Assembly: GCA_002633005.1 (NCBI GenBank)
Contig: NMRA01000666.1
Location: 153,508-217,507, forward strand
Direction: 5' to 3'
DNA from: Phoronis australis
Taxonomy: Eukaryota; Animalia; Phoronida
Length of the DNA stretch: 64,000 nt
Made by a program: the position numbers and the translations under genes. A model generated the notes under the pieces. That model was not told the DNA's origin and did not search any database. It worked only from the letters and a program-made list of their open reading frames with translations. Position 1 is the first letter of the stretch; the number at the start of each line of letters is the position of its first letter. Below, in pieces: positions 20,125-49,184 of the stretch.

Positions 20125-20224
20125 TGTTTTATATGTTAGTATCAATATTGTTTTATATGTTAGTATCAAAACTGTTTTATATGTTAGACTCAATATTGTT
20201 TTATTTGTGAGTATCAATGTTGTT
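20125..20224. repeat. Minisatellite, 24 bp x4
   Basis: TGTTTTATATGTTAGTATCAATAT-like units. Confidence 0.85.
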
Positions 20225-25472: not shown

Positions 25473-26656
25473 AGACAACAGATTCGCAACTCCGACATTT
25501 ACTTAGGTGTTAGCCAAGAGGCACCGCCACTCTCCTAAATTTTCTGGTGCAGTTTCCGGTTAGTGTATTTTGACGAGAAATACTTGCATCTACTTTACTG
25601 TCCACTACAACGAAAAAAATATTAATTTCGCCATTGAAACGTTGTTCAAAGTCTTCCAATAGTAGAAGTGTTGGTATCGTGAGTACTTTTGGCAATGCTA
25701 ATGGTAATTAATTACAAAATTCAAACTTCGGTGCCGACTGACTATGTCGTATGCTTGCCCAATAGCAGCATAGTTATCGGACAGTTTGCGATTTATGGTT
25801 TACANNNNNNNNNNNNNNNNNNNNNNNNNNNNNNNNNNNNNNNNNNNNNNNNNNNNNNNNNNNNNNNNNNNNNNNNNNNNNNNNNNNNNNNNNNNNNNNN
25901 NNNNNNNNNNNNNNNNNNNNNNNNNNNNNNNNNNNNNNNNNNNNNNNNNNNNNNNNNNNNNNNNNNNNNNNNNNNNNNNNNNNNNNNNNNNNNNNNNNNN
26001 NNNNNNNNNNNNNNNNNNNNNNNNNNNNNNNNNNNNNNNNNNNNNNNNNNNNNNNNNNNNNNNNNNNNNNNNNNNNNNNNNNNNNNNNNNNNNNNNNNNN
26101 NNNNNNNNNNNNNNNNNNNNNNNNNNNNNNNNNNNNNNNNNNNNNNNNNNNNNNNNNNNNNNNNNNNNNNNNNNNNNNNNNNNNNNNNNNNNNNNNNNNN
26201 NNNNNNNNNNNNNNNNNNNNNNNNNNNNNNNNNNNNNNNNNNNNNNNNNNNNNNNNNNNNNNNNNNNNNNNNNNNNNNNNNNNNNNNNNNNNNNNNNNNN
26301 NNNNNNNNNNNNNNNNNNNNNNNNNNNNNNNNNNNNNNNNNNNNNNNNNNNNNNNNNNNNNNNNNNNNNNNNNNNNNNNNNNNNNNNNNNNNNNNNNNNN
26401 NNNNNNNNATCTTTTCTTCCCACAGCCTATTATGGGGCCTTCGGATGGTATGGAAGCTAATTCCTTTGCATTTCGCGTGTGTGGCCGAACATCCGGCCAC
26501 ACAGTAGCCGACCATGCGGCAGACGACGTACTTGCCGGAAATTGCACCAGAAAATTTAGCCAGGTGTCGCTAGTGAATAATGACGTAAGTGCTTGTGCGC
26601 AAGTTCACAGATTTCGTCCATTGAAAGTATACGGAGTTGCCGTCCATGTACTGTCT
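25473..26656 (-). mobile_element. THAP-bearing TIR element with AT TSD (ISL2EU/Harbinger-related, probably non-autonomous; spans a gap)
   Basis: AT|AGACA..GCAACTCCG ... CGGAGTTGC..TGTCT|AT. Inner inverted repeat ctaaattt(t)ctggtgcagtttccgg / ccggaaattgcaccagaaaatttag. THAP N-terminus MVGYCVAGCS...GISFH..P..RLW starts at 26515(-) and runs into the gap. Confidence 0.7.
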
Positions 26657-27016
26657 ATGCTTTTTTAAAGAAAATGGAATCTGAGTGGCGATGAAAAAAC
26701 AGAAGCTGCTGGTAAGATTTGAATTTTAATCGAAGCCTTAGTGAATCACTCAGAAACTCATAATTCTCTCTTTGTCAAACCTTAACTTAAGACGATTTCC
26801 AAAGCAATCGTGTCATTATTGCCAACACGATAAACGGATTTGGTCTTTTGAGCAATTGAAGACTATTTTAAATACAACAGATTTGTTACGAGTCGATTGC
26901 ACAAAATATAAAACGTGTAATAAGCATAGCAAAAAGAAGTAGGTTTCGCGCGCAAACGCTGTAGACCATAAACAAGTACACCACTGCAGGTCTCTTAGTA
27001 TCATATTAGGAGTTAA

Positions 27017-27085
27017 GTGGTGGTTGTGTAGTGGTAAGCACGCTAGCTCTATCCGCAAGGTCGTGAGTTCGAGTCTGTGGTACCC
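27017..27085 (+). mobile_element. tRNA-derived SINE head (degenerate)
   Basis: A-box-like GTGTAGTGGTAA and B-box-like GAGTTCGAGTC with tRNA spacing, but no intact cloverleaf. Confidence 0.55.
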
Positions 27086-27411
27086 TCAGTTTTTCATGTT
27101 TGACACGTTCTCCGTTTTTGCTTTTTTTCTTGGATAATACTTCAGGAATCAAGGAAAATGCTTGATTTTTAGAGGAAAAAACAGAAAAATTTCCTGGGCC
27201 CGACCTATCCCCATTCGGTGCTCTGCGCATCTACAATTATGCTTTGCGCAAATGCTTACAGACAAAATGTTGGGCCCCCTTGTGATATCCTAGATCCGCC
27301 ACTGTCTAGTTTGACTTGGGAACAGTTTCCGAGACCAATCTTATAACAGTACATTTATGTGGTCGAAATTAAGTAATTTTTGCGGTGAACGGAGGGTTTG
27401 TGTCGCTTTAA

Positions 27412-28992
27412 TTAGATATCCAAGTATTTGAATACCTTTACCTCACCATCAACCTGAAGTACTGACACCTGCCCAGGACCAGTAATGGCTATGCCTGTAG
27501 GCCACCAGATATCACCAGCTTTGGTGATCTCGTATGCACTTGCAGGCGTGAATAGAATTACTTGGTCACTGGAGTAGTTAGCCACGAGAATGTATCCGAA
27601 CTGGTCGACACACAGACTGTCTGGCCCATCCAGGTATTTACTAATTGTTCTTATGACGACGGACTGCGTGTGGTTAATTACGTGGACAAGATCGGGGTTC
27701 ACCGATGCTACCACCAAGTGTCCAGTTTTCTCGCTCACACCTACACAGCGGGGTGTGAACTTACTAAGTCCAAGCGAGCGGGCGTCTATTTGGTCTCGGA
27801 CCTTACAGTCATAGTCAGTGAACACTATTAGTCCATCGTCTTTGTCTGCCACTATGAGATTGTCGTTGTGGCTGGTGATATACCCCTCGTCTTTATACAA
27901 ACGAGGGTAGACCTTCATCAGATGACCCAAGGGGTCATACTTGACAACACCGTTTATGTCAAAATCTGTTATGAAGATCTCACCGTTTTTATTTGTTGTC
28001 ACATCGCGTGGGACCTGCAGTCGGTATTCGGTTTGGTCCAATGTGAATTGCAATTCGAAATTACTCTTGTCAAAAACTTTGACATTCATGTTACTCCTGT
28101 CTGAAACGATCAACTTTCCATCACCCTCTGCTAGTCCCCAGCACTTGCCCTTCTCCTCCCCCTGAAGTTGGCTGCTAAATCTCCGCTCGAGTTGAACACG
28201 TTCTTTAACAGTTGGTTGAGCGGTTACATGATAGACAGGTGAACTACTGGAAGATATAACAGCCATGGCAATATTTCGAGAAAAGTTAGATGAGATATGT
28301 ACATTTTCAATCACTGTAACAATATTTACGTTTAAACCAGGATTTCCAATATTCTCAGCTCTCAATTCGATGACTGTCTTTTTCAGTAGTGTCTCAATGC
28401 ATTCATTACTTAAATTCTGAAGACGTGATCTAATTTCCCTAAATCGCTGTAATTTATTAACGTCGGATATACAATCAAGAATACTATTCACATCTTCTAA
28501 AGCACGCCGGAACCTTTCTCTACGTCGTTCATCTTCATCGTAGGCAGCTTTTGTGTGTTTTCTCGCTGCTTCTATCTTCTCGTTTAATCGAGCAATCGCA
28601 GTGTCTTCACAATTCTTGATTTGTTGACCAGTGACCTCTGTTGTATCGGGTAATTCGCTGAAAAGTCGTTTTATTTCACTTTCCTTAGCTTTCTGCTGCT
28701 CTTCCAAACTTTCAGAAATCTGTTTTCGCGCCTTACACAAGATGTCGCAGTGTTCAGCAACGTCTCTCCACTGTTCCGCCAAATTACGAAGTTCTTCACA
28801 AACGTTTTCTGCGGCATCCTCAATACTTATCATGTTGTGTTGGTTATGACTTGTAGTTATGCAATTCACGCAAATGGGAATCTCACATTGATCACAGAAG
28901 ATTTCCACTGGTTTATCCTTATGAGCAAGACAATTCAATAGCCCTATGTTCTGCACCGTCTCTTGTGGCATTTGTCCGTCCGAGTTTATCTT
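27412..28992 (-). CDS. Kinase-TRIM exon 8: B-box2, coiled coil and six NHL repeats (RING-less TRIM-NHL module)
   Basis: Acceptor cattttgttttag|AAG ATA AAC TCG GAC GGA CAA ATG is in frame with the 519-aa ORF. B-box CLAH..FCDQCEIPICVNC..SHNQH, then an E/K/R/Q-rich helical region, then blades such as PRDVTTNKNGEIFITD, PDSLCVDQFGYILVAN and PTGIAITGPGQV. Confidence 0.92.
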   Translation of the reverse strand, partial: KINSDGQMPQETVQNIGLLNCLAHKDKPVEIFCDQCEIPICVNCITTSHNQHNMISIEDAAENVCEELRNLAEQWRDVAEHCDILCKARKQISESLEEQQKAKESEIKRLFSELPDTTEVTGQQIKNCEDTAIARLNEKIEAARKHTKAAYDEDERRRERFRRALEDVNSILDCISDVNKLQRFREIRSRLQNLSNECIETLLKKTVIELRAENIGNPGLNVNIVTVIENVHISSNFSRNIAMAVISSSSSPVYHVTAQPTVKERVQLERRFSSQLQGEEKGKCWGLAEGDGKLIVSDRSNMNVKVFDKSNFELQFTLDQTEYRLQVPRDVTTNKNGEIFITDFDINGVVKYDPLGHLMKVYPRLYKDEGYITSHNDNLIVADKDDGLIVFTDYDCKVRDQIDARSLGLSKFTPRCVGVSEKTGHLVVASVNPDLVHVINHTQSVVIRTISKYLDGPDSLCVDQFGYILVANYSSDQVILFTPASAYEITKAGDIWWPTGIAITGPGQVSVLQVDGEVKVFKYLDI

Positions 28993-31900
28993 CTAAAACA
29001 AAATGTAACAAAAAATTTTGCCGATTAAAGCGGCCAGAAACCATTATTCCACAAGAATAAATTTCACCGGCAAAAAATGGTCTGAGGTTGTTCTTAACAC
29101 AGTTGAGAAGTGACCTCAGGGCTTCAAAACTGACAGTTCATAATTTCTTGTGACCATGTTAGTTATCGCGTCAAAGGATTTGTCGCCACGAGCCAAATTG
29201 TTGAGCCTAGGCGCAAGCACAAACTAACTGACAGTATTCGGATGTTTAGTGATGACGTGTCATGGTAGTAGATGACGCAATATGGACCCGGAATTAAAAA
29301 TAGACATGCCGTCACAGGGTCCAAAACGTCATAATGACGTAAAAATGACGTCACATTGTCAGTTTCAAGCCCAAAATTCACATTTAATATGATTAAAGAA
29401 AAATGTGGGACCACCCACGTAACACTGAGTGCACTAAATCAACTGCTAGTTGTTGTGACGGTAGGTCGGATTATAGCTAACCGTTCAACTTGATATTGTA
29501 TCACAGGCAGATTTAAACAAAAAGACCCACGGACACGACAAATCATGGCGGCATGTCGTTTTGGGAGATACGGGGACACTTTCCCTTAAATAATTGCCCA
29601 AAAGTTTAATAAGCGGCTGCGTAAAATGTTGATCTTTGCAGCCGACGTTAGTTGCAAACTGCAACTGCCGCCTATGTTGCCGGCCTCACAAATTCCGACA
29701 TTTGGTCTGTCTACAAATCCGTGCACCGCGTGAGTGTTCCCGTAAAATGCTTAATTTCCTCCTCTAAGTCCTTCACATGGCATTTTATAGGCCATGGACC
29801 GTACGCCACAAAAGGCTTATAAAACCAGTTTTGTGATTACTTTGGGGGGGGGGCAATTTAGTTTTGATTTTTTTATATCACAAAACATTGTATTTCATCG
29901 AAGTAACAAAATCCCATGTTTGAACTTGCTCATTTGCATGAAGTTTAGCTAATTCTGCAGATGGGACACGGAATGTATATCAAGATGTGACACTGCAAAT
30001 AATGTTTCCAAAGGTTGAATCAATTCATAACAACTAGCATTTTATATTTTTGACATTAAATGCAAATTAAAGGCAAATTTCTAGTTTTTATGTGCATTAC
30101 CTGTTCAATTTGGTAAAATTTTGACCTACCATTGCAAACATTTTTATTTTATTATTGAAGTTGTAAAAAGTGCAATACCAAACTGATAAAGTCGCCAAGT
30201 AACTTGATAATGCATTAGAAAATTTTACATTCATGTTATTAGAAACCACTTGATTCCAAATATCCATTAAACCTACACAAAATTACAAAAAGGGTAGGAA
30301 AAATGAAAAAAATGTCATGGATAAAAACAAAAGATTGTAAAAAAGCGAGAAATATGGCGGAAAAAGCGGAGCACGGGCTGAAGAAAGTGGTGGTAATCAG
30401 AAATAGGTTGATAATGAGAAACAAGAGTAAGAAAAGACAAAAGGGGTGAGAAAAAACAAAAAGCAGGGAGGATAATAAAAATTCAGGGAAAGGCAGAAAA
30501 GCTAGAGAACAGAACAAAATGGCGGGGAAACGGAACAAAATGGCGGAAAAACAACAAAAAGGCAGGAAAAAGGAATGAAGACAAGATCGGAAAAAGACAA
30601 AAAAGAGCGAACATTAGAAGAAAGGTGTAAAAATTTACAAAAAGGCGGGAAAACACAAAATGATGGAAAATAGTTAAAAGGGCCTGAAAATGACAAAAAA
30701 ATAAAAACTAAACAAAATAGAGGAAAAGGACAAAATTGAAATCAAGTGACATAAACGACTAAAAGGTGGGGGAAAAGATAGACCGGAAAAATGGCAGCAA
30801 ATGAAATATTGGCGGAAAAATGAAAACTGGGCAAAAGTAAAAAGCACAGAATGCCAGATGAATATGATGAGAAATTACAAAAGGCGGGAAAATGACAAAA
30901 CGCTCTGGTAAACCGATCAAAATGTTCGGAAAACAGCATATAGACGGAAATGGAGCAGAAGGGGTGAACCAAAAATGTCGGTAAAATGACAAATAAACTT
31001 GAAAATAACAAAAATATAGATATTGATGTAAGTAAATGATTGTTCAATGTTATTGGAGGAAAAGTAATAGAAACCGTTGTAGGGTTATTGTAGTTTTATT
31101 ACAGGAACCTTTAAAATATATTGAAAATATGACTATTTGACAAAATTTTGAGAAATTTTGAGCCTTCCATAACACTTGTAATGAAAGATATAATGTTCAC
31201 GGCATCTGCCGTATCTAAATATGGAAAGGTGTCCTTTAAAACTCTTATAAATACGACTGCGTCAAAAAGTTTTTGAGGTAGAGAAAGTGCCTTTATGAAA
31301 CTGGTCTTAGCTTCTTTACTCAGATCGGAACCGACAGTTCGCTATCGCCTGAGACGTGGTTGAAATTTGTGGGCAACAGCGAGACAGGGCGGAAAACGGT
31401 AAGTAAATGTTTGAAGCTCCATGCAAGAGATGCAGTTGTTTCAGAGAAAAAACAAAACACTTGTATGATTTTGATATTTTTTAATAATCTCAGAACGTTT
31501 TGAAAATAAGTATTTGACGAAATTTGCTGAAAACGTACTAAAAGCCTATATATTCACTTATTTCAGTGGTAAAATGATGTTCCCAGTTATTGTTTTGTAT
31601 TTGGAAAAGTTAAAATTGTTATGAAGATGTAAAACAATGAGAATTTCAAATGGCAATTCTTTTTTGTAACTCCTGGGAAGAACTTAAAAGTGGCTTTTGG
31701 ACTTGTTGAACGATTATTTAAATCTTAATATTGCAGGTAGTAATTTTCTTTATTTTACCTGCGCAGTTATTACACATGCAAAGCACAACAGAGCAGACAA
31801 AATTGTTGGCATTTGAAAAGTCCATATAGTTAGCAAAATCTTGCTGCGGTGACGTTTTGAACCCGTCTTGTGACAAGACTAAAAATGGCGTCTTTTTGAA

Positions 31901-34900
31901 AATATTTCAAACTATTTACATGCACAGTGCGTTTTAAAAAGTGTAAAATAGTTAAAAGACGTCACGAATAAAAAATAATGTAAATCATTAACATTTGGCA
32001 AGGCTTTCAAGAGGCAAACAAGTTTTATATCCAATTAAGTCCGGAGTTGGTCTGTAATATCAACAATTATTTTCTCGTCCAGCTTCTTCTCAAACTGATG
32101 CTCTGGAAACCTCGTCAATCCTCAAAAATTTGGAGAAAATTCGATAACTCCTTCCAAGGTCCGCAAAACTACAAGCGTGGTCGACTCTTGAGGCAAGTTG
32201 CACGACAACTGGGGAAAAAGCTCCGACTAAGGACGATGGTATCTATTATGTAACACTATTAGTATGTGTTTTAGTTGGACTCTGCTTTTATCACTCAAGT
32301 GAGATGCCAATGGTGCATTATGTCGGAACAAAACGAGGATTCACTATAATCAGCAAGACAGGGGTAAGTTAGTATCCTTTTAACCTAAATAAATTTCATA
32401 AAACGCCAAACATTTACCTGAAGAATGCAATCCATTTCTGTGTTGTCTTCGAGGGAAGCATGCATGTACTTTTCGATATACTCGTCGTGAAGTAGGTGTT
32501 CCATTCCTAAAACAGTACATAGTGCGTTCCCAGAAAATGATCGCCATGTTGAACTCTAGTGTTATTTATGTACACACATTGTTTGTGCTCGTGCGCGTGT
32601 GCGTGCGCACGGGTAAATGTTCGTGTGCAAGTGCGTGTGTGAGTGTGCGTGTTTCATTTAACAATTCAGAACCACAAAGCTTGGAAGAATTAGCAAAGTC
32701 ACATTGACGGAAACATGGTTCAATAAAACAAATAAGACGATGTATTCGTGGTAATAGAAGGGTCTTAATTTTTGTTTAACTCCAGCTCATTAATAAGAGA
32801 ATCGCCAGACTTACTTTCAAAACTATTCCTGTTAGTAGGTCGATATTCGAGGCAGTTTGACACCAATTGTATGAATATAGGAGGCTCACAACCCTTTAGC
32901 TCTCTCAAGCAATGCACTTTTATGTTCATTCCGTTCGTCTTAATTTGATTTTCAACCACTATACCCTGCAGACCTAATACAGCAAAAGTATGTAGTTACA
33001 TTACGACTGAGCTCGATTCATTTCGACAGTTCCGCCGGGTCAACTGGCTAAGACACAGGATTGGTCTGTTAGCCAGAAGTCGTCATCGTGAACCAATCAG
33101 GTGTGCGGTGAGTAGACGCTAGGACCTAGCTAAAACCTAGCCAAAGTCACGTGCTCTCATTTAAAATGCACGACAATATCTCACGTAATCTCGCGAAGTC
33201 TTGCTTTTTAGCGAGGTCCTAGCGTTACTGAACGGGAGGCAGATGTCTTAGCCAGTTCATCCGGCGGAACCGGCGAAGCCAATCAAGTGAAGCCACTGAT
33301 TGTTATACAGTTTCGGTACGACGTCATTGTGAACATATTTATAAAACAGTGGCCAATTGCATGAAACAGTCCCAGTCGGGACTCAACTATAACCCCTAAA
33401 TTTTCAGCGGATTTGTAGACTTTGTTTATTCACTACCGTTATAGTTTTTATCGTAATCTATTTTGCCCGGGGTACTCAGTTATCTTTATTGTGACCTTCT
33501 CTTTAACTTCTCACACTTTCTAATTATACAGCTGAAAAGCTGTCCTTTATTTTATGGAAAATAAATCAATACTAATTCCTTAAATTATGAAACACTTTTA
33601 ATAAGAATTCAACATTTAGTTCCTTTTCGGTATTTATCAAAACTAAAGTTTAATGCAGCAACAAAAATAAAATAGTCGAAGATGAGGCTTTCAATGTTTG
33701 CACTAAGTCTACATATGCTTTGAAAATTAAACGAACATAGACAAATCCTTAATGGGAGTGTTTCATACAACCGCCCTGTTTCAACAACATGTGGTAACTT
33801 TGCTACGTTTTTTTTCTACAGAGTTATAACGGAGATTTACACTAAAACTCACAACTGGTTTTTAGTCTTCCTTCAACTGGTTCGACTTAATCACTCGACT
33901 GTACGTTCAAAAGTCTGTGCTCAAATGTATTGTCAGCTCCATGCTCCAGACAGCGCTGCGAAGCCTTGCCTGTGATGAACTTCCAGCGACTGTTACACTC
34001 TATAGCTGCCCCCCTATTGACTAATGCTGGGCCGCTGATACTCTTTATTGCAACTTTAAATGTAAAGTGACTTTCATCTCCAATTTAAACTACGTCGCTA
34101 ACCCGTGCCTAGGTATTTATAGCCTCCTGCAATGTTCTGGAACCTTTCCCAATCATTCTATGAACATATAATAGTCTCTAAAATGTCCCACATTATATTA
34201 ATCACCAACACACTACAATCTTATAGAATGTTCCTTACTATTCTATTGTTAACAAATTACATAGTCACTGGCCTGGCCTCAATGGTCATGTCAGTCAAGT
34301 GTTATCTGTTGGTAAACAAACAGAACAGTAAAATAAAATTATTATTATTAATAAACTGATACAAATGTCAGTCCACTTCTCACATACTTGTGTTTGCGTA
34401 GCTTAGTGTTGCGTGGGTGTGTGCGCGCGTCCACGCGCATGTGTGTGTTTGAATGTATATATTATTGTCCCACTTTTGGCCGTCTGTCTCACTTTTTGAA
34501 TTTTTTCCCACCATTCCAAAACACCGTCAAAATGTCTCGCTTTTTGACATACGGCATTATTGACCTATTATCAAATTGTATTTTCCCGCGCTACACAGCC
34601 CTATCTTTCCTTTCGACTAAAAAGACAAAACGAGACGTATCATGAGTTTCTTGTCATCTGCAGTTTTCCATTCGAATAAAAAACAACAAAATAATGTCGT
34701 CGGCACTTTTGGATGTCATGTCTATCGTGTGACAAAATACTGTTGGTACGTCTTTGTGTGTTTCTATTTTAGCATAGACCCACATGGGCCGCTTTTGATC
34801 CAGAAGTCCCGCTTTTCATTCCGCTTGTTTCATTTAATCATTCTCGTTTGTTGACCGTGGCAACTATGCAACAGGTGTTCAAATTAACATTGGGTCTTTG

Positions 34901-37900
34901 TTAAAAATATTATTTCCCAGAGTCCACTTTCTTTAGTAACATAACTATCGTGCCTTTACGGTAATACACTTTATCCCATACGCGTTGAATCAGTCGAGTG
35001 CATACGGCCATGTTATATTATTGTTTTCCGTATTGACCTCCCGCACTTCTTCAACAGTGCTCTCTGACATGGAAAGTTCAAAAGGTAGGCCAATGTCGAC
35101 TCGACGTCGTTAGCTGGTTCCATCCTCAAACTTTCCAAAAAATAGTTTAAAGTAATACCGTTGCAGAATTAGAAATAACACTCAACATGCAATCAGGTCC
35201 CAAATGTAACTCCTGGAACAAAACTTAATTATTTGACACTTCTGTCTCAGATTGCGATTGCTAAATATTTTACCGTCTGCAACTCCTGAAGGCGCCGATT
35301 CCTCGGTAACTACAATATCAAATGTTGTTATTTAACTATTTTCAGGAAATAGTACAAGTTCAATGCACAATTACCGTTGTTTTCATCTTTTCTTCTCTTT
35401 TCAAGTAATAAATCGTTACATTTAAAACTTTCTTTTACTAGACACTTGTAACCTAACTCACAAGTACATACATATAGGATGTGATCCGCCAAGTGAACAG
35501 TCTGGGTGAAGTATTTGAAAAAGATTGCCGAAAAAGTGAAAGAAACTGAGGAATTCGAAACACATGGAATAAATACAAAACGATTGGCGTAGATATACAG
35601 ATTATTACATGCCAAAGTCGTTATTCCCCGTTATCTAGAGCCCGAGTGGATTTTGGAGAATTATCGCCCGAGGGACTAACGCTAATTCTCCAAAATCCCC
35701 TCGGGCTATAGATAACGGGGGATAACGACTTCGCCATGTAATAATCTATTTATATCCCACGAGACATTATTCCGCGTCTCGGTCTCGGTCGATACGCGGA
35801 ATACTGTCGAGTGGGATATTATTTCGTGTACGCCACTTTCGGTACGTTTTGTGTATGTACGTTACCTGTCCTAAAATGCAACCAATGTAATGTTCACCGT
35901 ATAATTCAAATTTACACAGTATATGTAGATGTTTTCTCATTTCTTATCTATCAAAAAACTTATTTTGGATACGTAGTAACTAGTTGATCACCTTTTTATA
36001 ATTTGCAGTGCATCTTCTATTAAACGGCACCTAAGGTTTAGCAATAAATAAAAATGTATAATTTTGGATGAATGCCTCACTAACTTTTTCTAAGACAGTG
36101 TGAGGGATTCATATTCTAACGTTATTTTTTTATAGGGTTCAACATGTCATTTATATTGCCTCTATGGTTCATTTCCCTTCATCTCACTATTACACCTTGA
36201 ATTAATTGACGTTACACTTAATTAGTTGACTAATTAGGTAATTAATCCACCAAATAGTATATAAAGCAGTCCCGTAACCAGGATTACTCAAGGGGTGGTT
36301 CGAATTTCTAAAACAATGGACCTTTTGATGATATTTGTCAAAAAATTGACATCGATTCTGTACCTTTATCGGGAGCGCCCCTAAGGAGCTAAACAGTGGG
36401 CGACGTAATAAGTTTTCAATACATAATTGTCAAGAAAATCAAAAAAGTTCAGTTAACTCAATATAGATGTTAAAAATTTTTCAGTACAACATTGCTCATT
36501 CAAACGACGAGATACACACCAGGTCGATAGGCTTCCAAATTTTATCTTCCTGGGATTTTTATTCTCTAAACGTTGTCAGTAGCTAACTCTGTTGTTGTGG
36601 ACATGTATCAGCACCAATACGGCAATTTGTCAGAGACTCTTCTCATACCTGCTCGTAGGAACGTTTAAGCATCGCGCCTTGCCAACGACTACGGGACACG
36701 TCAGTGAGGGTTTTTGGGATATTTGTTTTTATGTACTTCATTTAGGAGTTGTTCTCTCTTTGGGCAGCCTTTCCCTAGAGGTAAAGGCTAGGACTGGACC
36801 TTTTTCGCGGATGATTTCCATCAAACCCCACGAACCTCCCCACCCCTCCTGGATACGGGTCTATGAAAGGTACCATTATTACACTATGTTAGTTTTCGCA
36901 TTGTGGTAACACTCTCGGTTTTTAGAATTAGAAAATATGTTTTAAACTTGTCAGGTATGAAAATTATTTGTGCATTAAATTATTTACCTTTTGTTTCTGG
37001 TGTAATATCACGATCTGATGAAAGGTATTTTAATGATATGACTCTTGTGCAATTCGGTTGAAAAACAGTGGAAGTGACATTTTTTCATTGACCTAATGTC
37101 AAAATACATATTTTCTGTTATTTGTCCTAGGTACTTGATTTTGGTTTTAGAGTTCATGTGGTGCTTGATCGTGTGTATTTATTTTAAGGAAGTTGAAAAC
37201 TTTCCAAATTATTGACTTAATATTTCTAGATGACTTTACGTGACGTCTAACAGCTAGGTAGAGGGTAGCCGGCTTCCCGAATTGCCAGAAGATGATCCTC
37301 CGTTCGACAATGTTTGGGGCCTTTAGCATGCGCGCACCCAGCCTAACTTATAGGGGTGCTCGAATTTTTGGTAATGTGAACATTTTACTAACAAAAAATA
37401 CGGGGAACCACGATCAGAGCTATGAATTGTGCCGTCGCGCCTTTGAGTGGACTTTTGTCTCGTTTTCTCGGACTTTTTGTTTTTCTGAGGCGGACCTTTC
37501 TGTCTACCTCGCCAAATGAGCCCCCTGTGTGCGGTCATGATTACACCGCAAAATTTTCCAAAAAGATAAATGAAACTTTTTCGGATGAAAATTTCGGTGA
37601 TAACAATTCTGAACTTACTTCATTTGTACTGAACAAACACTCCATTTTAAGCCCCATACTGCATAGCAAGAAACAATACCGGAACAAACGAATGCAAGCA
37701 ACTACCACGCATGCGCAGCCGCGCGAGATCGAAGTTGGCATTCTAGTTCTACATTTGCATGCCCTCAGTGAGAGCTCTGCCAGCGGCGCTGTGTAAACTA
37801 TTGAATCTGTCCAGCACCATGGTCCATCGTCTGGTACTAGCTGGCTCCTTGACCACCAGTGCAATGCACGAGTAACACCTGATATATGTAATTACCTTTA

Positions 37901-40900
37901 AATGGTAATTCGTTCTTCATAAGCTCGTACAGCGTAACTCCAAAGCTGCAAAATAAAAAAAAAGAATTTCTTAGATGTCCGGTTACACATTCAACAAATT
38001 GTTGTTATCTGTTAGAAAAAACGGCTGTTGATAATCCTTGGTAGATCTAGGATATCGCTAACGGGGCCAACGACTATTGGAAATTTTCTACATAGCCACA
38101 AAATCGGCATACCTCATGTCCGCAGGAGAGGGGTAGACTGACTCTCTGCCCCCATTGAATTGACTGCGGCAATAAATGTGATTGAACTATTCAAAATATG
38201 TTTTGAATTTCATTTATTCGGCTGGATTATTGTTTTAGGCAATTGGTAGTTCCGTGTGTACTAAGCCAAACGTGCCAAAATGGCTAAAATCGTGTTAAAA
38301 TTGATCTAAAATACCCTGAGCCCCCAGGCATAATACAGCCGTCCCAGCTTACAAAGCGATAAGAACTCTCCTTTATTCCTGAGGTAAGAAAGCGTGTGCC
38401 TCGTTTTGGAATGGCGGGCACATTTTCATTGGTTATGTCAGAAATCGTTAAGGTGGAAATATTATTCCCGATTTCAATCGTTCATAAGCGCCGGAATTGA
38501 AAGGGTATCGTTCTTTTGAAAAGTGACCTGACGAACTTATTTTATCCACTAGCTTCGCACTTTCTTGTCTTCGATTGATGCCGGGAAGGCAAAGAACTTA
38601 ACATCACGCATTCACGCCCATGTGTGGATATTTGTCAAGTTTATCCAACTTTCTCTAGTCGGAGTTTCAGCACACAACAGAACAATAATATTTTGTAGCC
38701 ATTGGATGGACGAATAGAGTAATATAGCAGAGAAAAACTTGTAAAAATGTTACAAGGAACTTTTGCAACTCCAATGGCGCTAAGACCGCGATGCCACAAA
38801 TTAAAGTACTTCGAGAATATTGCGGCATTGAGGGTAAATGCGAGACTCGAGTGTCACCCACAAAAGACAGGGTGTTGTACTAATTTGTTAAAGATATAAT
38901 ATGCAATTTATACCTTTGTATATGGAACGGCTTTGTGACAACTCAGTTGTACACTTCTGTGAATCTGTTTTGGCGGATACAAATAAAAAGTGTCTGGTTC
39001 ACGCTCCGGTAACATTTGATCGATATGATAATACGTTTTGGAACAGCAGGAGGTGACTTGGCATCTAATATGACAGTGAAAGATAATTGTGTCACATTTA
39101 CGCCCAACCTGCTATAGGTTGTGATTGGTTCCTTCAACTGATTGATTCTTTAAAAGATCTGGCACGTGCCTCAGAACTCGCCAACTGAGTCACCGTTCGC
39201 GTAAAACATCCAGCTAAATTGTCACAAGTTGGCCCTGAGGGTCTTCCGTATAAACTTTGTGCCAAACCTTGTATACAATGAATACCTCCACACATCTGTT
39301 TCGGGAGTGTTCCGAGGAAAATTTCGGTCAACAATGTTCGTATTTAGCAACTCAGGTGCCATGTAAGCCAAAGTCCCGGCAGGACGTGCTGAGCCTGTTT
39401 TGTCTGTCGTGAAGCCTTGAAGACGAGACACCCCAAAATCTCCCACCTAACAATGAAGAGGTCTCAAATCACTTCCCATCAAACTTGGGAAAGTGATTAA
39501 GGCAATGTAGGGCCTTAGCAAAAAAGGGCAATAGTCTGATATGACGTGCCCGTATTTTGAGAACCAGTTTGATGCCCGTTATTCAGTGGAGAAAACTGGT
39601 TCTCAAAATTCGGGAACGTTATATCAAAATTTAGGCACGTTATATCAGACCATTACCCAAAAAAGACCAAATTTTGGAGCCACATATCCCACAAGTGGTT
39701 GATCGGATTCATATGAAGCTTTTAGGTACTATAACTTTATGCAATGTTCTCTAAAACGCTTCAGTAATTACTTTTAAAATGATCCATTTTTGTAACAGTG
39801 TCTACTTTAAAAATACCAGTTTTATGATTTTTACGAAAAGCTCAAAAATGCGTGAAACGCAAGAGCGTTTTTGAGATTCCACATTGAAATTGATATCATG
39901 TCGTTGTTTTGATGCGAATTTGCGTTTCTTTTTGACAAATTTTATTTACAAAGACACCGCCACGTGACACAAAATGAGAATGGTGTCAAGTCAAATATCA
40001 AAGTTAACGGGCTTTTATGTTCAGAAAAAATGTCCTTTTACGGAGATAAACTGCGAGTTAAACTAGTTATCTAGCTAAAGGTATTTGACTGAATTCAGCC
40101 ACAGATTTGTCAATATAGTCATACACAACCCCAGCTCTGTTCCATTAACGCATCTTTTGATTTATTGTTCACCAAAAAGCCATTCAAATGTAAGGCTAGG
40201 CAAAAATTAGATACAACATAGAAGTATCAGAGCAGATTCCGTAGCCAAGGCATCACACTTCATACACTCTATACTTTATGAGCGTTTTCACGCAGTCAAA
40301 TGATATTTTGCCATCGGAATTACGTCACTTCGATCTGAAATGACCTTGTGCTTTAGCTTGATAACTTAATTTCCACATTCTAAAGAGTAGTGGTACGCTT
40401 AAAACCACTACTAGTTAATATATTCTAGAAGAACATCACACAGTGACTTGTACAAATTACGTGTCTCACGTTTGTTTTGGGCCGTCAACTCGTACGTTGT
40501 CAGAGTCAGCCATTTTTACCATAGTTTTGTTTATACTTATTTCATTTTCCTGATTCGAAAAAATGTTATGTTGGCTTCTCACCATGTTCAAGCCATAGAG
40601 TCCTTCTAGTCTCATTGCGCGAGGTTTTCAAATCGAAATTGCCAGGGCAAAAGTTTCATAAAAAAATCATCGGTTTAGCACGTGTGTGCATGTAAATTAT
40701 TAAAACCTTCAGCGCATTGATGATATTTTGTCATGGATCTGACACTTGGTCAGATATTCAATGTCCAAAAGACACAGATCGCACAGCAACTTAGCGACCG
40801 CTTCTTGACACATTCCAACCCTGAAAAGCTTATTAGAATATCAGTTGGATTGTGTTACCGAGTTCAACTATGAGTTGTGCGCCCACACCAGGCACACTCT

Positions 40901-43900
40901 GCCACGTTTTACCTCCAATAAGTGAGGAAATTGGGAGACTAATTGCACAGGTCCCACTTGTCAAGGGTAAGAATTGGTACTTAATTACATGTACCTTAGC
41001 TTTGATACGGTCATCAATTAAGATGTTATCCAATTTAAGATCGGCATGAACCAGACGTACGTCGTCGTGCAGATACCGCATGGCTTCTGATACATCAATC
41101 ATCATCTCAACCTGCAAAACGTCGTCACTATATTTCACTTTTGTAGTTACGTATCAGGTCTGTAAGAACATGTTCTCGAATATCAAATACCAATGGTAAC
41201 TGATGAAACTGAGAGCAACGCAAAGCGTTGGCAAGCGTCCTCTTTGGGGCATCACAAAAGGTATGACAGTGGGGAGCTCATTGCACTCATGGAACACAAC
41301 AAGACCAATTATGTAATGATTTTGATCACCCTTAACGTCAAATTAGGCATACTATTTATATCTGGAGAGTTAAATAAATCCAAAAGTCTACTGTCTAATG
41401 TCGTAAATGCATGAACATTAACTCCTAATGCTTGCGTTTCATCTGAGTCAAGCTTCCTTGTCGCAAGCACACCCTAACCGGTCGAGATTGGGCAACTCGA
41501 CCAGTTTGCGCACCACAGAATCTGCCGATTTATATAGAAGACACCATGCTGTTGTAGTTAATCAACGGCACCCCCGGCTGCTGATGTTATCGTTCTTTAT
41601 ATAATTAGACCATCATAAACATACTGGGGGCAACTATAGTATTTTTAAATGTTCGTTTTGAAAATTTGTAAAAGCATGTATGAAAAGTTCGTGAAAAGCA
41701 CAAATGATTCAGTTTGTGAATTTTGAAAGTTGGACAAGGAATGTGACTTTTACAACCCAAAACGTTTGCTTAATGTTGCAACATGTTCCTCGTTAATTTT
41801 GATGGGTGTGCAACATAATTGGGCCAATTACCAAACCACCAGACAGCAGTTGGATTTTAAAGTAAGTCAAGTGTCATCTTGCAATTCTTGGCATGAGTTA
41901 CTCGCGATTACCAGCAGTCAATTGTTGCCATTTGCTTTGAGAGCGATGTCTAGCCTGGAATGGTTTTGTTCCTCGATTTGGCATTACGTACTTCAGAACA
42001 ATCAATGCTAACATTTCAGATGTAGGCTGAAACTTTGTGTTGAACTTGGTAGCCTGAAGTTTGGTGTTCAGTCGATTACTCTTCCAATTGCCGTTAAATC
42101 TGTTCCAGTATTCGACAATACTTCCCAATTTTGAGGCCCATGTCGTTTTTAGTAGTCTGCGCTGTTGTCTACAGTATGCAATTTGGGCTCTCTTGGGACC
42201 GGGAACCAGTCGGCCGTTCAAATTAATATCAACGTTTACTTAATTACAAATAAAACTTCACTGTTTAAAACGGTTATTAAGCCCCTTAGATGACAAAATA
42301 ATTCTCTCAGACTACCAAACGAAATTATCGGTTCATCACTAACGTTTTCAGGTCATCTTACGCGTAGAAAATTTGCTTTTAATTTATGTACCGTCAAAAC
42401 GATTACGTGGTGTTATAACTGAAAGTATACGTCACTGCACGCGTGCCTTTGAGGCGTGCGTTATGGCGAATATGAATCACATTTTGCTAACATGATATGA
42501 TTCTCTTCCGTTTACCAACTCAAGACATTTTTCGAGATCGTAATTTTAGGAGTGGCTAAACTCCATAGTGTTGAAGCGTGTTCTTGATCAGTTGCTGAGG
42601 GTTTCTGTATTCTTGTTGGTAACGGAAATGGAATCCTATCACTGTTAGTGATATTACGAGACTAATTTCCTGAGAGTAAAAAACAAATTTCATTTTTGTT
42701 TTAGCCAGCTAAACAGGGCAATATGCAACTTGAATAGTGAAGCAGCGAATCAGTGAATTGTATAATACCAAACGGAGTTAATTTTTTTTTAAAAAACAAT
42801 ATTGTCTTGTATGGTGCGCATTTGATTGCAATAAGAATTTGACAAGTTGTCTCATAATGCATCCAAATATTTGAGTGCGAATCATTCTGCTAATAGTGAT
42901 GCTTTTGTTCTAACTTTTCAAATTTGATGAAATGAGACTGTAATAACTAATCATTGTCGATCTACCTCAAACACTGAAGGCAGTGAAGCAAGCTGTCGGA
43001 TATACAAAATTAACAAAATAGCAACGGTGATCAATATCCACAGCGAGGGTGAAACGCCACTTCAAGAACACCAGACAATGAGGATATGTCGGGGATTCTG
43101 CAAGAACGCCATGTGCACCGGAAAACGTCTCCAGATACGGGCTAGGTCTATCTCAAAATCACTTCAAGCAGTCTTCAACAATGACGTTAAGCTGTCCAAC
43201 ACAGGATCCTGATCGTATCACATTTGCAGCTGATACAAGAAAACCCAGTGATTATATGTATCCAGTGGCGGATTTAAGGGGTGGGCAAGGGCGCCATGCC
43301 CCCCACCCCTAAAATTTGCCCAGATTCCATTTGGCAGTACGGGAGTGCGAATGTCTGACGGGTAAAATCCTGGCTAATACTGTCCCCCCTAACTCAAAAT
43401 CCTGGATGCTCCCCTGGTATCAAAGGTTCGAAAGCAACATCGATTTCGTTCTTAACTTGATGTTGTTTTGTTCCCGTGAGAGTTTGCAACAATGTAGCTA
43501 TGGCAGGCGTGCACGTGCGTTAAAGGGCGATTGTTTGAGATAGCTTAACAAAGTGACCCATTTAAATTAGTTTGATTTTGATGTAAGTGCAGTGGCGGAT
43601 GTACGGGGGGTTCAGGGGGTTTAAACCCCCCCTCGGGCCAGGACCCAAAAATTTAAAAAAGCGTCTCCAGCAAAACAAAAACGGCACCGCCAGCGTGTGT
43701 AAACCCCAAGTAAAACAACTTGGAAAAATTGACGGGGGGTTCACTCTGAAAATATAGTATTTTGCGTTGTGAATTGCTGAGTCTTTGTGGCTCATCGGCA
43801 AAACGCGCGGGGATTTACTGTGCACGCGCTTCTGTCGACACTTCTGAAGTAGCCAAGCATTTTAGATGGATTCACCGCTGAAAGAGCAGTTCTATAGCTG

Positions 43901-46198
43901 ATTTCTTTAGGTAACTAGCTTCTTTACTCTAAGATATATTTTGATTTGATTAGGGGAAATACTGCGGTGCCGCAACCCTGATATTCAGGCGAATTGACGT
44001 GCAACGTTTTTACCTCATCTGTCATGCCGTGTCATTCTATTACACTCCACACGTTTGTAACTGATGTATAGTAAAGTTGTCTTGCGCAATATCATACAGT
44101 GTACATGTACATGTAATATTGTGTACATGTACATGTACTATTTTTGAAAAAAATTCTTTTTCCGAAGAATTGCTATTGTGGCGGGCGCCGTGGTCAGGTC
44201 GCGAGTCCGTTTGAAGACACACTCTATAACAAGTTTTGTCTATACAAGGAATGACCAAGGGGGCACTCACATTGAGAAAGTGACCGCATTCGCGAAAAGT
44301 GTACAGTANNNNNNNNNNNNNNNNNNNNNNNNNNNNNNNNNNNNNNNNNNNNNNNNNNNNNNNNNNNNNNNNNNNNNNNNNNNNNNNNNNNNNNNNNNNN
44401 NNNNNNNNNNNNNNNNNNNNNNNNNNNNNNNNNNNNNNNNNNNNNNNNNNNNNNNNNNNNNNNNNNNNNNNNNNNNNNNNNNNNNNNNNNNNNNNNNNNN
44501 NNNNNNNNNNNNNNNNNNNNNNNNNNNNNNNNNNNNNNNNNNNNNNNNNNNNNNNNNNNNNNNNNNNNNNNNNNNNNNNNNNNNNNNNNNNNNNNNNNNN
44601 NNNNNNNNNNNNNNNNNNNNNNNNNNNNNNNNNNNNNNNNNNNNNNNNNNNNNNNNNNNNNNNNNNNNNNNNNNNNNNNNNNNNNNNNNNNNNNNNNNNN
44701 NNNNNNNNNNNNNNNNNNNNNNNNNNNNNNNNNNNNNNNNNNNNNNNNNNNNNNNNNNNNNNNNNNNNNNNNNNNNNNNNNNNNNNNNNNNNNNNNNNNN
44801 NNNNNNNNNNNNNNNNNNNNNNNNNNNNNNNNNNNNNNNNNNNNNNNNNNNNNNNNNNNNNNNNNNNNNNNNNNNNNNNNNNNNNNNNNNNNNNNNNNNN
44901 NNNNNNNNNNNNNNNNNNNNNNNNNNNNNNNNNNNNNNNNNNNGTCTTCGTTCTTAAACAACTTGAGGCTGCTGTTACGCGATCATCTGATATTCAAGTT
45001 TTTACGCCCCGTCGGTGCTCCTTAATTATGCTCTTGAATATTTGGAAATTGTATAAACCCCTGTATACACACCACACTTTTTCGTATACGACTTTTCGTA
45101 TGCTAAAAAAGGTGTGTGTGAGCAGATGTTCCAACAAAAATTTTTGCTGGTGGCGTGACTCATACCCAGATGTGCACAATATGGTTTCACGAAACTTATG
45201 TGCCAAGTTCATGTGACGAAATCGAGAAGGATTTTTAATTAAGAAAAACTCCAGAGACATGTTAAGTGCCAGAAACTTACCAGGATGCATGGAAATTTCA
45301 CTATTTGGCTACAAAAACAAAAACATTCTTACCCGCTCGGCGCCACGCGCCTAGGATTCGACCTTGGCGGGTATCCTAAACCCCCCCTTGCTGAAAACGT
45401 AGATCTGCCACTGAAGTGCACATACCTGTATACCAATCGGTATTTGAGAACCCTCCAATTTAGTTTGCATCAGTAAATCCTTGAGAGATCCATACTTCAT
45501 ATACTGCAATACAAGCCCGTACACGTCTTCCAGTATGATGCCATATATCTTGACAATGCCCTTGTGTTCGATCTTACACATCGATCGCGCCTCCTCACAG
45601 GCCAAGATAGCCTGCTTGTGACTGAAATCGTTTTTAAAAGTACGGTGTCAATTTGTCTTTGGGAAATAGAGAATTGGATTCAGGGATTCAATTGGGTTGA
45701 CGTTCTTTCTTGGGATATTGTTCAAGACGGGCAGACAAGTAGGCATATGCAATACTGAGTTCCTTGTGTATGTAACTAGGAACTTCAACTAACCATATAA
45801 AAAACAAATAAATGGTTCCACCACACCATTCATTTTCAAGAATGATGCTGCGTGGGACCCACAAATCCGACTCATTTCCCGAACGCGACACTCGCGTAGG
45901 CCTAAACTATTTTCGTACTACTGTAAATTTTTCATATGATGAAAAGAAACGAAACTCTGTGTTTGCAGAACTATGGATTTGCACTGTTACCGTATCAAAT
46001 CAGCACCTACCATTTTGTATATTTACGCCGATCGATAACCTTTACAGCCACATCCAACCCACGATAGCGACCTTTTATAACAGACCCGTAACCACCTTCA
46101 CCAAGAACGCTTTCCTCAAGAGAAATATCATTCAGTGAAATTTGGGGACACGTCACTTGTTTTTGAATCCTCTGCAGACGTTTATCATCAAATGCCAT
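27412..46198 (-). CDS. RIPK-like Ser/Thr kinase - B-box - coiled coil - NHL fusion protein (846 aa, 8 coding exons), gene-level model
   Basis: complement(join(46011..46198,45426..45621,40995..41111,39286..39446,37896..37945,32815..32973,32418..32506,27412..28992)). All 7 introns are GT-AG with phases 2,0,0,2,1,1,0. Total 2541 nt = 847 codons, with no internal stop. An in-frame TAA lies 2 codons before the ATG (GAA TAA GAC ATG G). Confidence 0.8.
30275..31010. repeat. Purine-rich (A/G) low-complexity tract with degenerate repeats
   Basis: aaattacaaaa(a)ggcgggaaaa and aaaatggcggaaaaa recur; strong strand skew. Confidence 0.8.
32418..32506 (-). CDS. Kinase-TRIM exon 7: post-kinase linker
   Basis: ctgttttag|GA ATG GAA... 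encodes (R)MEHLLHDEYIEKYMHASLEDNTEMDCILQ|GTAAAT. It converts phase 1 to phase 0, which is the phase the TRIM exon needs. Confidence 0.8.
32815..32973 (-). CDS. Kinase-TRIM exon 6: subdomains X-XI
   Basis: tgtattag|GT CTG CAG... encodes (G)LQGIVVENQIKTNG...CEPPIFIQLVSNCLEYRPTNRNSFE A|GTAAGT; C...P..R.SF motif; phase 1/1. Confidence 0.88.
33016..33284. mobile_element. Inverted-repeat-bounded element (MITE-like)
   Basis: Left gttccgccgg.t.aactggctaagaca and right tgtcttagccagttcatccggcggaac form ~40-bp imperfect TIRs. Confidence 0.65.
35592..35819. repeat. Two adjacent long hairpins (palindromic element)
   Basis: First hairpin: arms 35592-35663 and 35683-35756 (~72 bp, few mismatches). Second hairpin: atatcccac..tattccgcgt / acgcggaata..gtgggatat at 35752-35819. 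Confidence 0.9.
37327..37539 (+). mobile_element. MITE, CATGCGCGCACCC family, inserted into another repeat
   Basis: CATGCGCGCACCCAGCC...GTGCGGTCATG. It interrupts repeat 37265-37754, whose uninterrupted homolog lies at 196-495. Confidence 0.75.
37896..37945 (-). CDS. Kinase-TRIM exon 5 (50 nt): subdomain IX
   Basis: ttttattttgcag|C TTT GGA... encodes (S)FGVTLYELMKNELPFK G|GTAATT and completes DVWSFG. Too short to appear in the ORF track. Confidence 0.88.
39286..39446 (-). CDS. Kinase-TRIM exon 4: subdomains VII-IX (DFG, APE)
   Basis: ttgttag|VGDFGVSRL...AGTLAYMAPELL...TPETDVW(S) AG|GTATTC, phase 2. Confidence 0.92.
39526..39658. repeat. Palindromic MITE-like element
   Basis: gggcaatagtctgatatgacgtgccc..ttttgagaaccagttt pairs with aaactggttctcaaaa..ggcacgttatatcagaccattaccc; the right arm has a small internal duplication. 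Confidence 0.8.
40995..41111 (-). CDS. Kinase-TRIM exon 3: subdomains VIa-VIb (catalytic loop HADLKLDN)
   Basis: ttttgcag|VEMMIDVSEAMRYLHDDVRLVHADLKLDNILIDDRIKAK|GTACAT; 117 nt, phase 0/0. Confidence 0.92.
43263..43416 (+). mobile_element. MITE, CAGTGGCGGAT family
   Basis: GTATC|CAGTGGCGGATTT...TGGATGCTCCCCTG|GTATC. Related termini occur at 43590, ~52003 and 27294-27304. Confidence 0.7.
45426..45621 (-). CDS. Kinase-TRIM exon 2: subdomains III-V
   Basis: tttcag|T CAC AAG... encodes HKQAILACEEARSMCKIEHKGIVKIYGII...LVLQYMKYGSLKDLL...GIQ|GTATGT, phase 0. Confidence 0.9.
46011..46198 (-). CDS. Kinase-TRIM exon 1: kinase subdomains I-II
   Basis: MAFDD...LGEGGYGSVIKGRYRGLDVAVKVI contains the Gly loop and VAVK lysine. 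Donor TG|GTAGGT, phase 2. Confidence 0.9.
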
Positions 46199-49184
46199 GT
46201 CTTATTCAATTCTTGTGAGTAATCTTAACCAAAATTTTATAATTTTGAAAACAGTTGCGTCACTTGAAGGAAATTGCTGACTCCAGGTTAGCTTATCAAT
46301 TATCTTCTACACTGTACATCTATAGATGCAGATATGCTATGCAAAATTCATTGCGGCGATCTGATGGTCGGCCAAATAGGTGGTTGGGGCTCTGTTTCTC
46401 ATTGACCTCTCGTCGCTTGTCGCCACACCGTGTCGCTTCTCACATGTAGTTACCACGACGCTGCAACACCAAATTTGTCCATTGGGAAGTGCTGAGTAAC
46501 ATTTTCAGTATTACTTGCTTTCATTGTACTCTTGTGTTGTGGTTGAACCAAATAGTAACACTTGTTGAAAGTGTTACTTCCCCTGGAAACAAAAGTATTA
46601 AACAATTGGCATAAAATGAAAATTATTTTATTAAAAATTTGAGACATAAAATTGACTAATATGGTTAATTTTCTCAATTAATTTCAGTAGTTTTAGGCAT
46701 TGTGTCTACCTTGAAACTTTGTGGTTAAAAATCAGCAGCTTGAAAAATAATCCAGCAACCTAAAATACAAAAAAAACACAGTGACTTCAAAAGAGGCGTG
46801 ATATTTCAATCTGCTCACTAAACGTTTACGTTAAATTCAGACGAAGCAAAGTTTGGTCATAGTTTAGGGGGGCGGAGGGGACTGAGCTTCAACGTTTGGA
46901 CACTCCGATTAGGTTTTACTGTGCCAGACGCCATATTTGGAAATTTGCTGTACTTAATTCGTTGCTATTGTGATTGGAACAAGGGTCCTGGATATCATCC
47001 AGCTGGCGTGGAAAGGTGTGCATGTTTTGCGTTATCCATCAGTGTACTTCATAATGGACGAGTGAAATGCACGCGATCACAAAAAACACGATGGCGTTCT
47101 ATGCACTGCAACCTTGACATCACACTTTCCACTCGTGATTGACATGTTAATGGTGTCCAATTCACTCGTGCTGGTATTCGAATTCACCCATGAAAATACA
47201 GTCTGTAGTATCTGGGGATTCAGGGAACTTAAAGGTTCAGAGCTTTTCGTAAACGTCCATTCCAAATTACGACAGTGTTTTATTTGGACTTTATGAGGTT
47301 AAATATGGTTTGTAAGGCTGTATTCACAGTGGTGCCATTTTGGAAGGAAACTTAGCTATCACCGATGCTGCTGAAAAACATCGGAAAAACACTACGTGAA
47401 AGACCTAATAAATTGAAAATATCGGAGATAAAAGTGGTTTTCTAAGATTACCCCCATCGCAGAATGGATTTCACAACCTTAGCGGTGGCAGCTCAATCCT
47501 TTGGTGGCCTTTTATTTTTAAACGTGTTTAACTGGTAAAGTCACTCCCCTTGATTTCTGCGAATGGCTGGCAGGTAACGGCGTGATCGGTGATTTACAAT
47601 AAAATCCCCAAAACATTTTGGATTTTGTTGCTCTTTAGCTCTGGTCAAATCGTATAACTCCAAGATGTCTATCCATACGACAATAACCCCTAAGTGCGTT
47701 TCTCTGTCGTAAAACCGTTTGTGTCCCTATAACAAAATACATTAACAGAGAATTCCCGATATACAATTGTTCTCGAAGTCTCAGGTAAGTTACTCAGGAG
47801 CTTTCCTTGATTCAGGTTCCAAAAACTCCTTCATCAGTAACTCACGGTTTGGGCACTGCACCATGGGGACCATATGGAGAAGTATTGGTTTTCAACCCTA
47901 CTATGGTTAAGAAAGTGGTAGTTGTGACCTCCATTTTTATCATCGAAGATGCATTATAAAAACAATGCAGTGTTTTCGAGGGCAGCGTCGTGGATCAGTT
48001 TGAGACCCCGTCCGTTTTATAATCTTGTCGAAGCAACCAAGAAGTACAATCTATGTTTTGGACTCGCATTTTTTTTTGTACTGTGTCGTGTCATCTGTTC
48101 TTTATTAGTGGATAGTGTCACGTGTCACGACAGGTGCCATCATCATCCAACCTTTTCATTGGCTATATAGGCCTATATCACGCATATTCAAGTTCCTAAC
48201 AAGCGTCGGTTTTCATCGTCAATTTTTATCTTCTTCCTTTCGTCTTCTTCTTCGTCCCTCATTCTTCTTCTCCATCGTCTTCTTATTGTATCAAATCACT
48301 TCTTCAGATATTCTTAGCAGTACTGACTTGTACAAAGGAGAATTAGAAGGTAATTAATTGGTAATTAAAAAATCTCAAATGCAGGTTTAAACAATGCCTT
48401 TATATTTACACTTATAAGCTGAAATGTTGCGAGGTTTGATGCCATTAAGTCTATGGCTAAAATATTTCTGATAGTCTGTACCTGACCAGAGTTGGAGAAG
48501 GAAGCTGTGATGAGTAACCATTGACATCATGTTTTGCTACGACAGCTTCTCATTGGCGACTTGCTGTAGTTCTCGTGTTGACGGTTTTTAAATGCTTTGA
48601 AAGTGTGGCGGCAGATTTGTGACACTCTTGTAAGTTATTGCTACCATAAGTGGGACACCGAACACGTACTGGCTCACTTTTTAGTACAGCCGTATGGCAC
48701 TGAGTTTAACTTCATTTGTTGAAATGATGATCGTTCCCCTAGCCACTAGGTGGTGCTCCGGATGATACCGCTTCACCAGAACCCTTTAATGTAAGTGTGA
48801 GCCTCAAAACAAAAAATAAATTCAAAGACACGCTTTTTAGAAGTTTTTCACCAACCGCTTTCCTCCGTCGTATCTCTTTAACTTCTGTCGATGATGTTCG
48901 ACTTTCAGAGTTTAAACCCATAAACTTTGCTATGAGTTTGCAATTGTAGCATGTAATCAATACGCAATTAATGTTTTGTGTGAGTACCCTATTTCATAAT
49001 CTACTCAGTACTCGGCGCTGCACTGTGACTACTGAGGCTAGCAGCATTGCGGAGCCCCGGATGCTGATTTTTCAACTTTTATCTGAGGGCTCTTTTATTT
49101 GCTGGAGCCTCGTTGCCAAGCGTGTTTCTTCCTTGGAGGAATTTGAACGTCGTTACGGTTGAATCCAGTGTTGCTTTAATCGGG

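Follow-up and report, generated by a model that had tools for sequence, protein, structure and literature searches.

A candidate single gene joining a RIPK-like kinase to a RING-less B-box/coiled-coil/NHL module in the phoronid Phoronis australis

Introduction

Among the main signalling devices of animal innate immunity that are activated by clustering, two are TRIM proteins and RIP kinases, which as a rule occur as separate polypeptides. Here, we describe a locus of Phoronis australis at which a device of each kind may be carried by one gene. On the minus strand of a 64,000-nucleotide stretch of contig NMRA01000666.1 (GenBank assembly GCA_002633005.1, positions 153,508 to 217,507; hereafter the window, to whose first letter all positions refer), eight exons can be joined in a single open reading frame (ORF) that places a RIPK-like kinase ahead of a B-box/coiled-coil/NHL module without a RING. 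The combination had been proposed in an earlier reading of the letters and their ORFs alone (hereafter the sequence-only reading), which we followed up with domain, structure, splice-site, and relative searches.

Four groups of described proteins come closest to this arrangement. The TRIM-NHL proteins (TRIM class VII: TRIM2, TRIM3, TRIM71/LIN-41, TRIM32/Thin, Brat, Mei-P26, and NHL-2) share with the last exon of the locus a type 2 B-box with its zinc ligands, an extended coiled coil (here predicted), and an NHL propeller of six blades. They differ from it in that here there is no RING in or upstream of the exon, there is only a single B-box, and a kinase may occupy the place of the RING; moreover, the filamin/ABP280 repeat that precedes the NHL domain in TRIM2, TRIM3, and TRIM71 does not occur here. 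TRIM coiled coils form antiparallel dimers, and clustering of several molecules upon ligand binding switches on TRIM RINGs. For TRIM21, activation is described as substrate-induced clustering (bioRxiv 10.1101/2020.07.28.225359).

The RIP kinases RIPK1, RIPK2, and RIPK3 share with the other end of the locus an N-terminal TKL-type kinase that is followed by a protein-interaction module. The catalytic loops of RIPK1 and RIPK2 are of the non-RD type, as is the HADLKLDN loop encoded here, whereas the Death, CARD, or ankyrin tails of RIP kinases were not found in Pfam scans of the ORFs at this locus, a RHIM being too short to exclude in this way. A third relative in design is Pyrin/TRIM20, with the architecture PYD–B-box–coiled coil–B30.2. 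It likewise lacks a RING, carries a signalling head in its place on a TRIM scaffold, and keeps the C-terminal sensor, but its head is a death-fold adaptor rather than an enzyme and its sensor is B30.2 rather than NHL. Finally, the oncogenic fusions TRIM27-RET and TRIM24-BRAF illustrate that self-association through a B-box/coiled coil can activate an attached kinase; in contrast to the arrangement considered here, they are somatic, have the TRIM part N-terminal and the kinase C-terminal, and lack a ligand-binding domain.

Results and Discussion

Eight exons form one uninterrupted frame. When rebuilt from their coordinates (Table 1), the exons between 46198 and 27412 join into a frame of 2541 nt, that is, 846 codons and a single terminal stop. 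All seven introns are GT-AG and the exon phases are consistent throughout; the 89-nt exon 7 enters in phase 1, leaves in phase 0, and is stop-free, and the ATG of a 519-aa form of the TRIM-like ORF lies at 28971, 21 nt past the acceptor of the TRIM-like exon. The exons, linker, phases, and acceptor that the sequence-only reading had proposed are thus all where it placed them, and the junction it had spelled out (RNSFERMEHLL...DCILQ/KINSDGQMPQE...CLAH) reappears in the rebuilt translation. This anatomy is real and well formed. That the eight exons make up one gene, encoding a predicted protein of 846 residues with the kinase ahead of the RING-less module, is a reading to which we give an even chance. 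It is favoured because the donor of exon 7 and the acceptor of the TRIM-like exon rank near the top of all sites scored at the locus and fit in phase, and because Pfam scans show no exon with another domain that competes for the kinase.

Table 1. Coordinates of the candidate gene, its predicted domains, and elements discussed in the text
Feature	Positions	Strand	Description
Exon 1 (kinase)	46011..46198	-	ATG at 46198, Gly-rich loop GEGGYGSV, VAVK lysine; Pfam Pkinase, profile 4-39
Exon 2 (kinase)	45426..45621	-	alpha-C glutamate to hinge; Pfam PK_Tyr_Ser-Thr 1.5e-8, profile 36-96
Assembly gap (N run)	44309..44943		inside intron 2
Exon 3 (kinase)	40995..41111	-	catalytic loop HADLKLDN (non-RD); Pfam Pkinase 8.7e-7, profile 92-138
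Exon 4 (kinase)	39286..39446	-	DFG, activation loop, APE, DVW; best PDB matches RIPK3, 1.1e-5
Exon 5 (kinase, 50 nt)	37896..37945	-	subdomain IX; gapless in spliced-kinase alignment
Exon 6 (kinase)	32815..32973	-	subdomains X-XI, conserved Arg; PDB kinase C-lobe matches
Exon 7 (89 nt)	32418..32506	-	last kinase helix and 16 linker residues; donor CAG/GTAAAT
Candidate leader-exon donors	29068..29482	-	last exon bases 29482 and 29068; scores 5.2 and 5.7 (unfitted weights)
CRE half-site cluster (ACGTCA), one full TGACGTCA	29253..29353		candidate element of an internal promoter; TRIM-exon acceptor lies 260-360 nt downstream
Exon 8 (TRIM-like, 1581 nt)	27412..28992	-	B-box, coiled coil, NHL; 526 codons from acceptor; stop TAA 27414-27412
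B-box type 2	28822..28935	-	ORF residues 20-57; Pfam zf-B_box 1.8e-10; all zinc ligands
Predicted coiled-coil helices	28408..28824	-	ORF residues 57-112, 119-172, 177-195; AlphaFold2
Six-bladed NHL beta-propeller	27418..28212	-	ORF residues 261-525; PDB, Foldseek

One alternative is that the linkage has no biological meaning, the exons being an unexpressed or decaying relic or unrelated pieces brought together by scaffolding. The N run in intron 2 parts exons 1 and 2 from exons 3 to 8, so that the first two exons are tied to the rest only via scaffolding, and no near-identical protein is present in the libraries searched, where the best identity is 31%. Against this, the eight exons are intact and free of frameshifts and premature stops, and all catalytic and zinc-binding residues are kept. 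The kinase profile positions also run on continuously across the gap in the Pfam matches, and the sequence from exon 3 to the end of the TRIM-like exon is free of N, so that the junction between exon 7 and the TRIM-like exon lies in uninterrupted sequence. We regard an artefact or relic as very improbable.

Exons 5 and 6 can, by eye, also be paired in a second in-frame way, with a donor after TATCAG at 37881 and an acceptor after CTGCAG at 32965 (37881-37945 and 32964-32973, minus strand), which would add a few residues and leave the downstream frame unchanged. Within the window, tblastn of the kinase and of the TRIM-like ORF matched only themselves.

The head is a complete kinase, tentatively of RIPK-like type. 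Pfam matched kinase profiles in four of the six kinase-region ORFs, and the matches follow one another in profile order (4-39, 36-96, 92-138, and 140-183). The two ORFs without a match are one at 39134-39343, which contributes no exon to the model, and the one that carries exon 6; all 21 PDB matches of exon 6 (E up to 10) are kinase C-lobes aligned at the expected position, the best being DYRK2 (E 0.03). The spliced kinase aligns unbroken over the joints of exons 1 to 5 (residues 31-238) to two unrelated Pkinase-bearing proteins (P0164 and P0165). In the spliced translation we find a Gly-rich loop (GxGxxG), the VAVK lysine, the alpha-C glutamate, HADLKLDN, DFG, APE, DVWSFG, and the subdomain XI arginine, and the catalytic loop (HxDLKxxN) has alanine instead of the RD arginine, making it non-RD. 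As predicted from sequence, the kinase domain is complete, with all catalytic motifs present, and because the spliced translation holds every one of them the kinase looks active and of the non-RD type.

Similarity to known kinases was measured exon by exon rather than with the whole spliced domain. Among PDB chains, exon 2 matches RIPK1 (1.2e-5) in second place after a JAK-type chain (1.3e-6), and exon 4 has RIPK3 in first place (1.1e-5); with about 1e-5 each, these matches lend support to the complete RIPK-like kinase put forward in the sequence-only reading. "RIPK-like TKL kinase" seems a fair label for the head, and its placement in the RIPK subfamily is tentative because it draws on exon-by-exon similarity only. 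A search of the Atlas with exon 2 returned only kinase fragments of 51-82 aa, which are uninformative on architecture.

The last exon encodes a RING-less TRIM-like module. Its 526-codon ORF has Pfam matches to B-box and NHL/SGL, and Pfam finds neither a RING nor a filamin/ABP280 domain in it. The B-box ligands (C21, H24, C33, C41, C44, H49, and H52) are nearly invariant in an alignment of 28 sequences, comprising the ORF and 27 relatives. The AlphaFold2 model has a mean pLDDT of 82.7, rising above 90 in the B-box, and predicts a coiled coil of about 135 residues followed by a low-confidence linker (residues 200-257). Among PDB sequences, the NHL part matches TRIM3 (1.8e-13) and TRIM2 (2.1e-12), while the B-box/coiled-coil region aligns with B-box/coiled-coil chains of TIF1-beta and TRIM3. 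In Foldseek the propeller matches TRIM2, TRIM3, TRIM71, Thin, and Brat (E to 3e-16, TM 0.80-0.83). Domain and structure searches and the model support the RING-less B-box/coiled-coil/NHL module. Direct or inverted repeats around the exon do not exceed chance, and there is no sign of a target-site duplication.

The splice sites that would join the two parts are strong. Sites were scored with a matrix of unfitted weights. On this scale the exon-7 donor scores 8.7, and scores of at least 8 occur in 1.2% of the 1127 GT sites in 27000-46400; the acceptor of the TRIM-like exon, at 4.5, is the best acceptor of the model, and scores of at least 4 occur in 1.1% of 1001 AG sites. Placement of both sites in about the top 1%, together with the phases, bears out the earlier claim of a strong acceptor and an in-frame fit. 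Phase itself adds less than it may seem to: the phase-0 entry at the acceptor is partly forced because its AG belongs to the TAG that opens the long ORF, which leaves the phase-0 exit of exon 7, expected in one case in three, as the sole independent phase coincidence; that phases alone agree this often by chance is a point against a single gene.

No other domain exon lies within reach of the kinase. Pfam was run on all 135 ORFs of at least 75 aa in the window (4 + 123 + 8); for the intervals 16200-27411 and 28993-32417 it was also run on 97 minus-strand ORFs of 35-74 aa. In these scans, which take in three low-complexity ORFs of intron 7 from a last set of 10, the TRIM-like ORF alone has a Pfam domain downstream of exon 7 on the minus strand; no RING, Death, or CARD exon therefore competes for the kinase. 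The absence of a RING between kinase and TRIM-like exon, which the sequence-only reading had supposed, holds in every scanned ORF. Death, CARD, and ankyrin tails likewise have no Pfam match downstream on that strand, where a RHIM would be too short to exclude. We also considered that the kinase continues to a Death or CARD exon beyond the TRIM-like exon; this was rejected, as there is none in the ORF scans. As for the start codons, a favourable context is marked by the bases at -3 and +4: the kinase ATG at 46198 has G at both, and the internal ATG at 28971 has C at both. The poorer context of the internal ATG weakly favours a single gene.

Relatives of the TRIM-like exon point the other way. 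The chief alternative is that the locus holds a pair of ordinary genes that lie side by side on one strand, in which the kinase ends soon after exon 7 and the TRIM-like exon is transcribed separately, and most of what follows in this and the next two paragraphs counts for it and against a single gene. A library of 1.84 billion proteins gave 1332 matches to the TRIM-like ORF, none of which reaches E 1e-30 and the best of which is 31% identical. No kinase is present in any of 152 relatives (the best 150 of the 1332, which were stored, and 2 found earlier). A kinase search of the stored proteins matched only two bacterial-type Pkinase-WD40 proteins, which serve as a positive control and came from the following profile search. 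A profile of 28 sequences returned 17 matches, 0/17 of which combine a kinase with a B-box or NHL, and the nearest Atlas clusters listed (10 rows, equal to 30 matches) include no kinase family. These nearest clusters consist of B-box/NHL proteins that stand alone and measure 462-606 aa (524-606 aa for the closest); most come from molluscs and some from echinoderms.

A RING is present in 11/16 full-length relatives and missing from 5/16. In one RING-less relative, P0007 (524 aa), the B-box spans residues 19-58 and the layout is that of the 526-codon ORF, and the exon carries its own in-frame ATG, 13 codons ahead of the B-box; the TRIM-like exon can thus stand alone. Judged from the sequences compared, a stand-alone B-box/NHL protein is the normal form of this TRIM-like family. 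Other searches were negative within their own scope: a word-indexed protein search with the TRIM-like ORF returned no longer proteins and only two weak matches of similar length, a metagenome contig scan gave 44 pattern matches and no relatives, and full-text searches of one literature collection turned up no account of a kinase + B-box + NHL protein. The relevant passages of two papers (PMC3503706, PMC8382680) mention RING-less TRIM-like proteins and an expansion of B-box genes in bivalves, with no kinase fusion.

Intron 7 contains candidates for the signals that two genes would need. Under this alternative the kinase would end either in a small terminal exon within 32417-28993 or by read-through of exon 7, which meets a TAG 10 codons past its donor, and the TRIM-like unit would have a promoter near 29250-29800 and an untranslated leader spliced to 28992, with translation starting at ATG 28971. 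Of the 36 ACGTCA sites in the window, 5 fall within the 101 nt of the cluster in Table 1, which is significant, and either candidate donor could end the untranslated leader of a stand-alone TRIM-like gene. TATA-like motifs lie at 29877 and 29789 (the whole window has 79 such matches). One candidate kinase terminal exon has an acceptor at 30272, a single codon, a stop, and AATAAA at 30153; a second has an acceptor at 31348, 10 codons, a stop, and AATAAA at 31100.

Several observations stand against this division into two genes. The proposed terminal and leader exons are mere motif matches that occur at or near chance frequency; poly(A) hexamers, for example, number six in 3.4 kb, which by our estimate is about as expected. 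There are no NF-kB or ISRE motifs in 28993-30000. The ratio of observed to expected CpG stays flat at about 0.94 over the window and is similarly undepleted through 26400-48000, and neither candidate start has a promoter island. Furthermore, a donor as strong as that at 32418, placed at the end of the kinase domain and phase-matched to the next strong acceptor, would be unlikely if exon 7 were terminal. We put the likelihood of two separate genes a little below even.

Two features of this interval are of separate interest. The gene body (26400-48000) is not depleted in CpG, and in invertebrates undepleted CpG usually marks unmethylated, inducible, or tissue-restricted genes. Intron 7 also contains an imperfect minisatellite (30279-30993) that is purine-rich on the plus strand, where units around AAAATGGCGGAAAA recur at intervals of 19-165 nt. 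Read on the gene strand, this minisatellite gives rise to many pseudo-acceptors and to long Phe/Leu-rich ORFs that have no Pfam match.

A single gene would suggest a kinase in the role of the RING. If the eight exons are spliced together, one possibility is a germline-encoded sensor in which a RIPK-like non-RD kinase replaces the RING on a B-box/coiled-coil/NHL scaffold and phosphorylation is the readout when a ligand clusters the propeller, a proposal that we advance tentatively and hold to be somewhat less likely than not. By analogy with TRIM proteins, the coiled-coil dimer would hold two N-terminal heads apart, the NHL propeller would recognise its ligand, either RNA or protein, and a multivalent ligand would gather several dimers, whereupon the kinase heads might phosphorylate each other or a substrate. 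Clustering would then lead to phosphorylation here, in place of the ubiquitination produced by a canonical TRIM protein. A stand-alone 519-aa isoform, driven by an internal promoter, may be made alongside the fusion.

The structure of the locus also suggests how a fusion could have arisen. Seven small kinase exons precede a single exon that holds three domains, a contrast that suggests that a kinase gene rich in introns captured, at its 3' end, a B-box/NHL gene with few of them. If the single gene is real, the RING would be an exchangeable output module, the protein would allow simple tests of how clustering activates a kinase, and the locus would suggest that marine invertebrates have a modular family of cytosolic innate sensors with interchangeable heads. 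If there are two genes, the locus is an ordinary one, a TKL kinase beside one of many RING-less B-box/NHL genes.

Other Features of the Window

The window has about 40% G+C, contains spliced genes, and is interrupted by four assembly gaps; a tRNA scan of it returned no genes. At 18934-19536 (+) is an open frame of 201 aa that is rich in Ser and Glu and has no Pfam match. A single-exon ORF at 14695-16146 (+) encodes a G protein-coupled receptor of the rhodopsin family (484 aa stop to stop; Pfam 7tm_1, 5.3e-27) whose third loop or tail is long and rich in Ser and Thr. At the end of the window, an ORF at 62902-63408 (+), together with one at 63591-63920 (+), matches DUF1759 (2.6e-6), which we take to be a gag-like domain typical of BEL/Pao retrotransposons, and is probably a transposon fragment.

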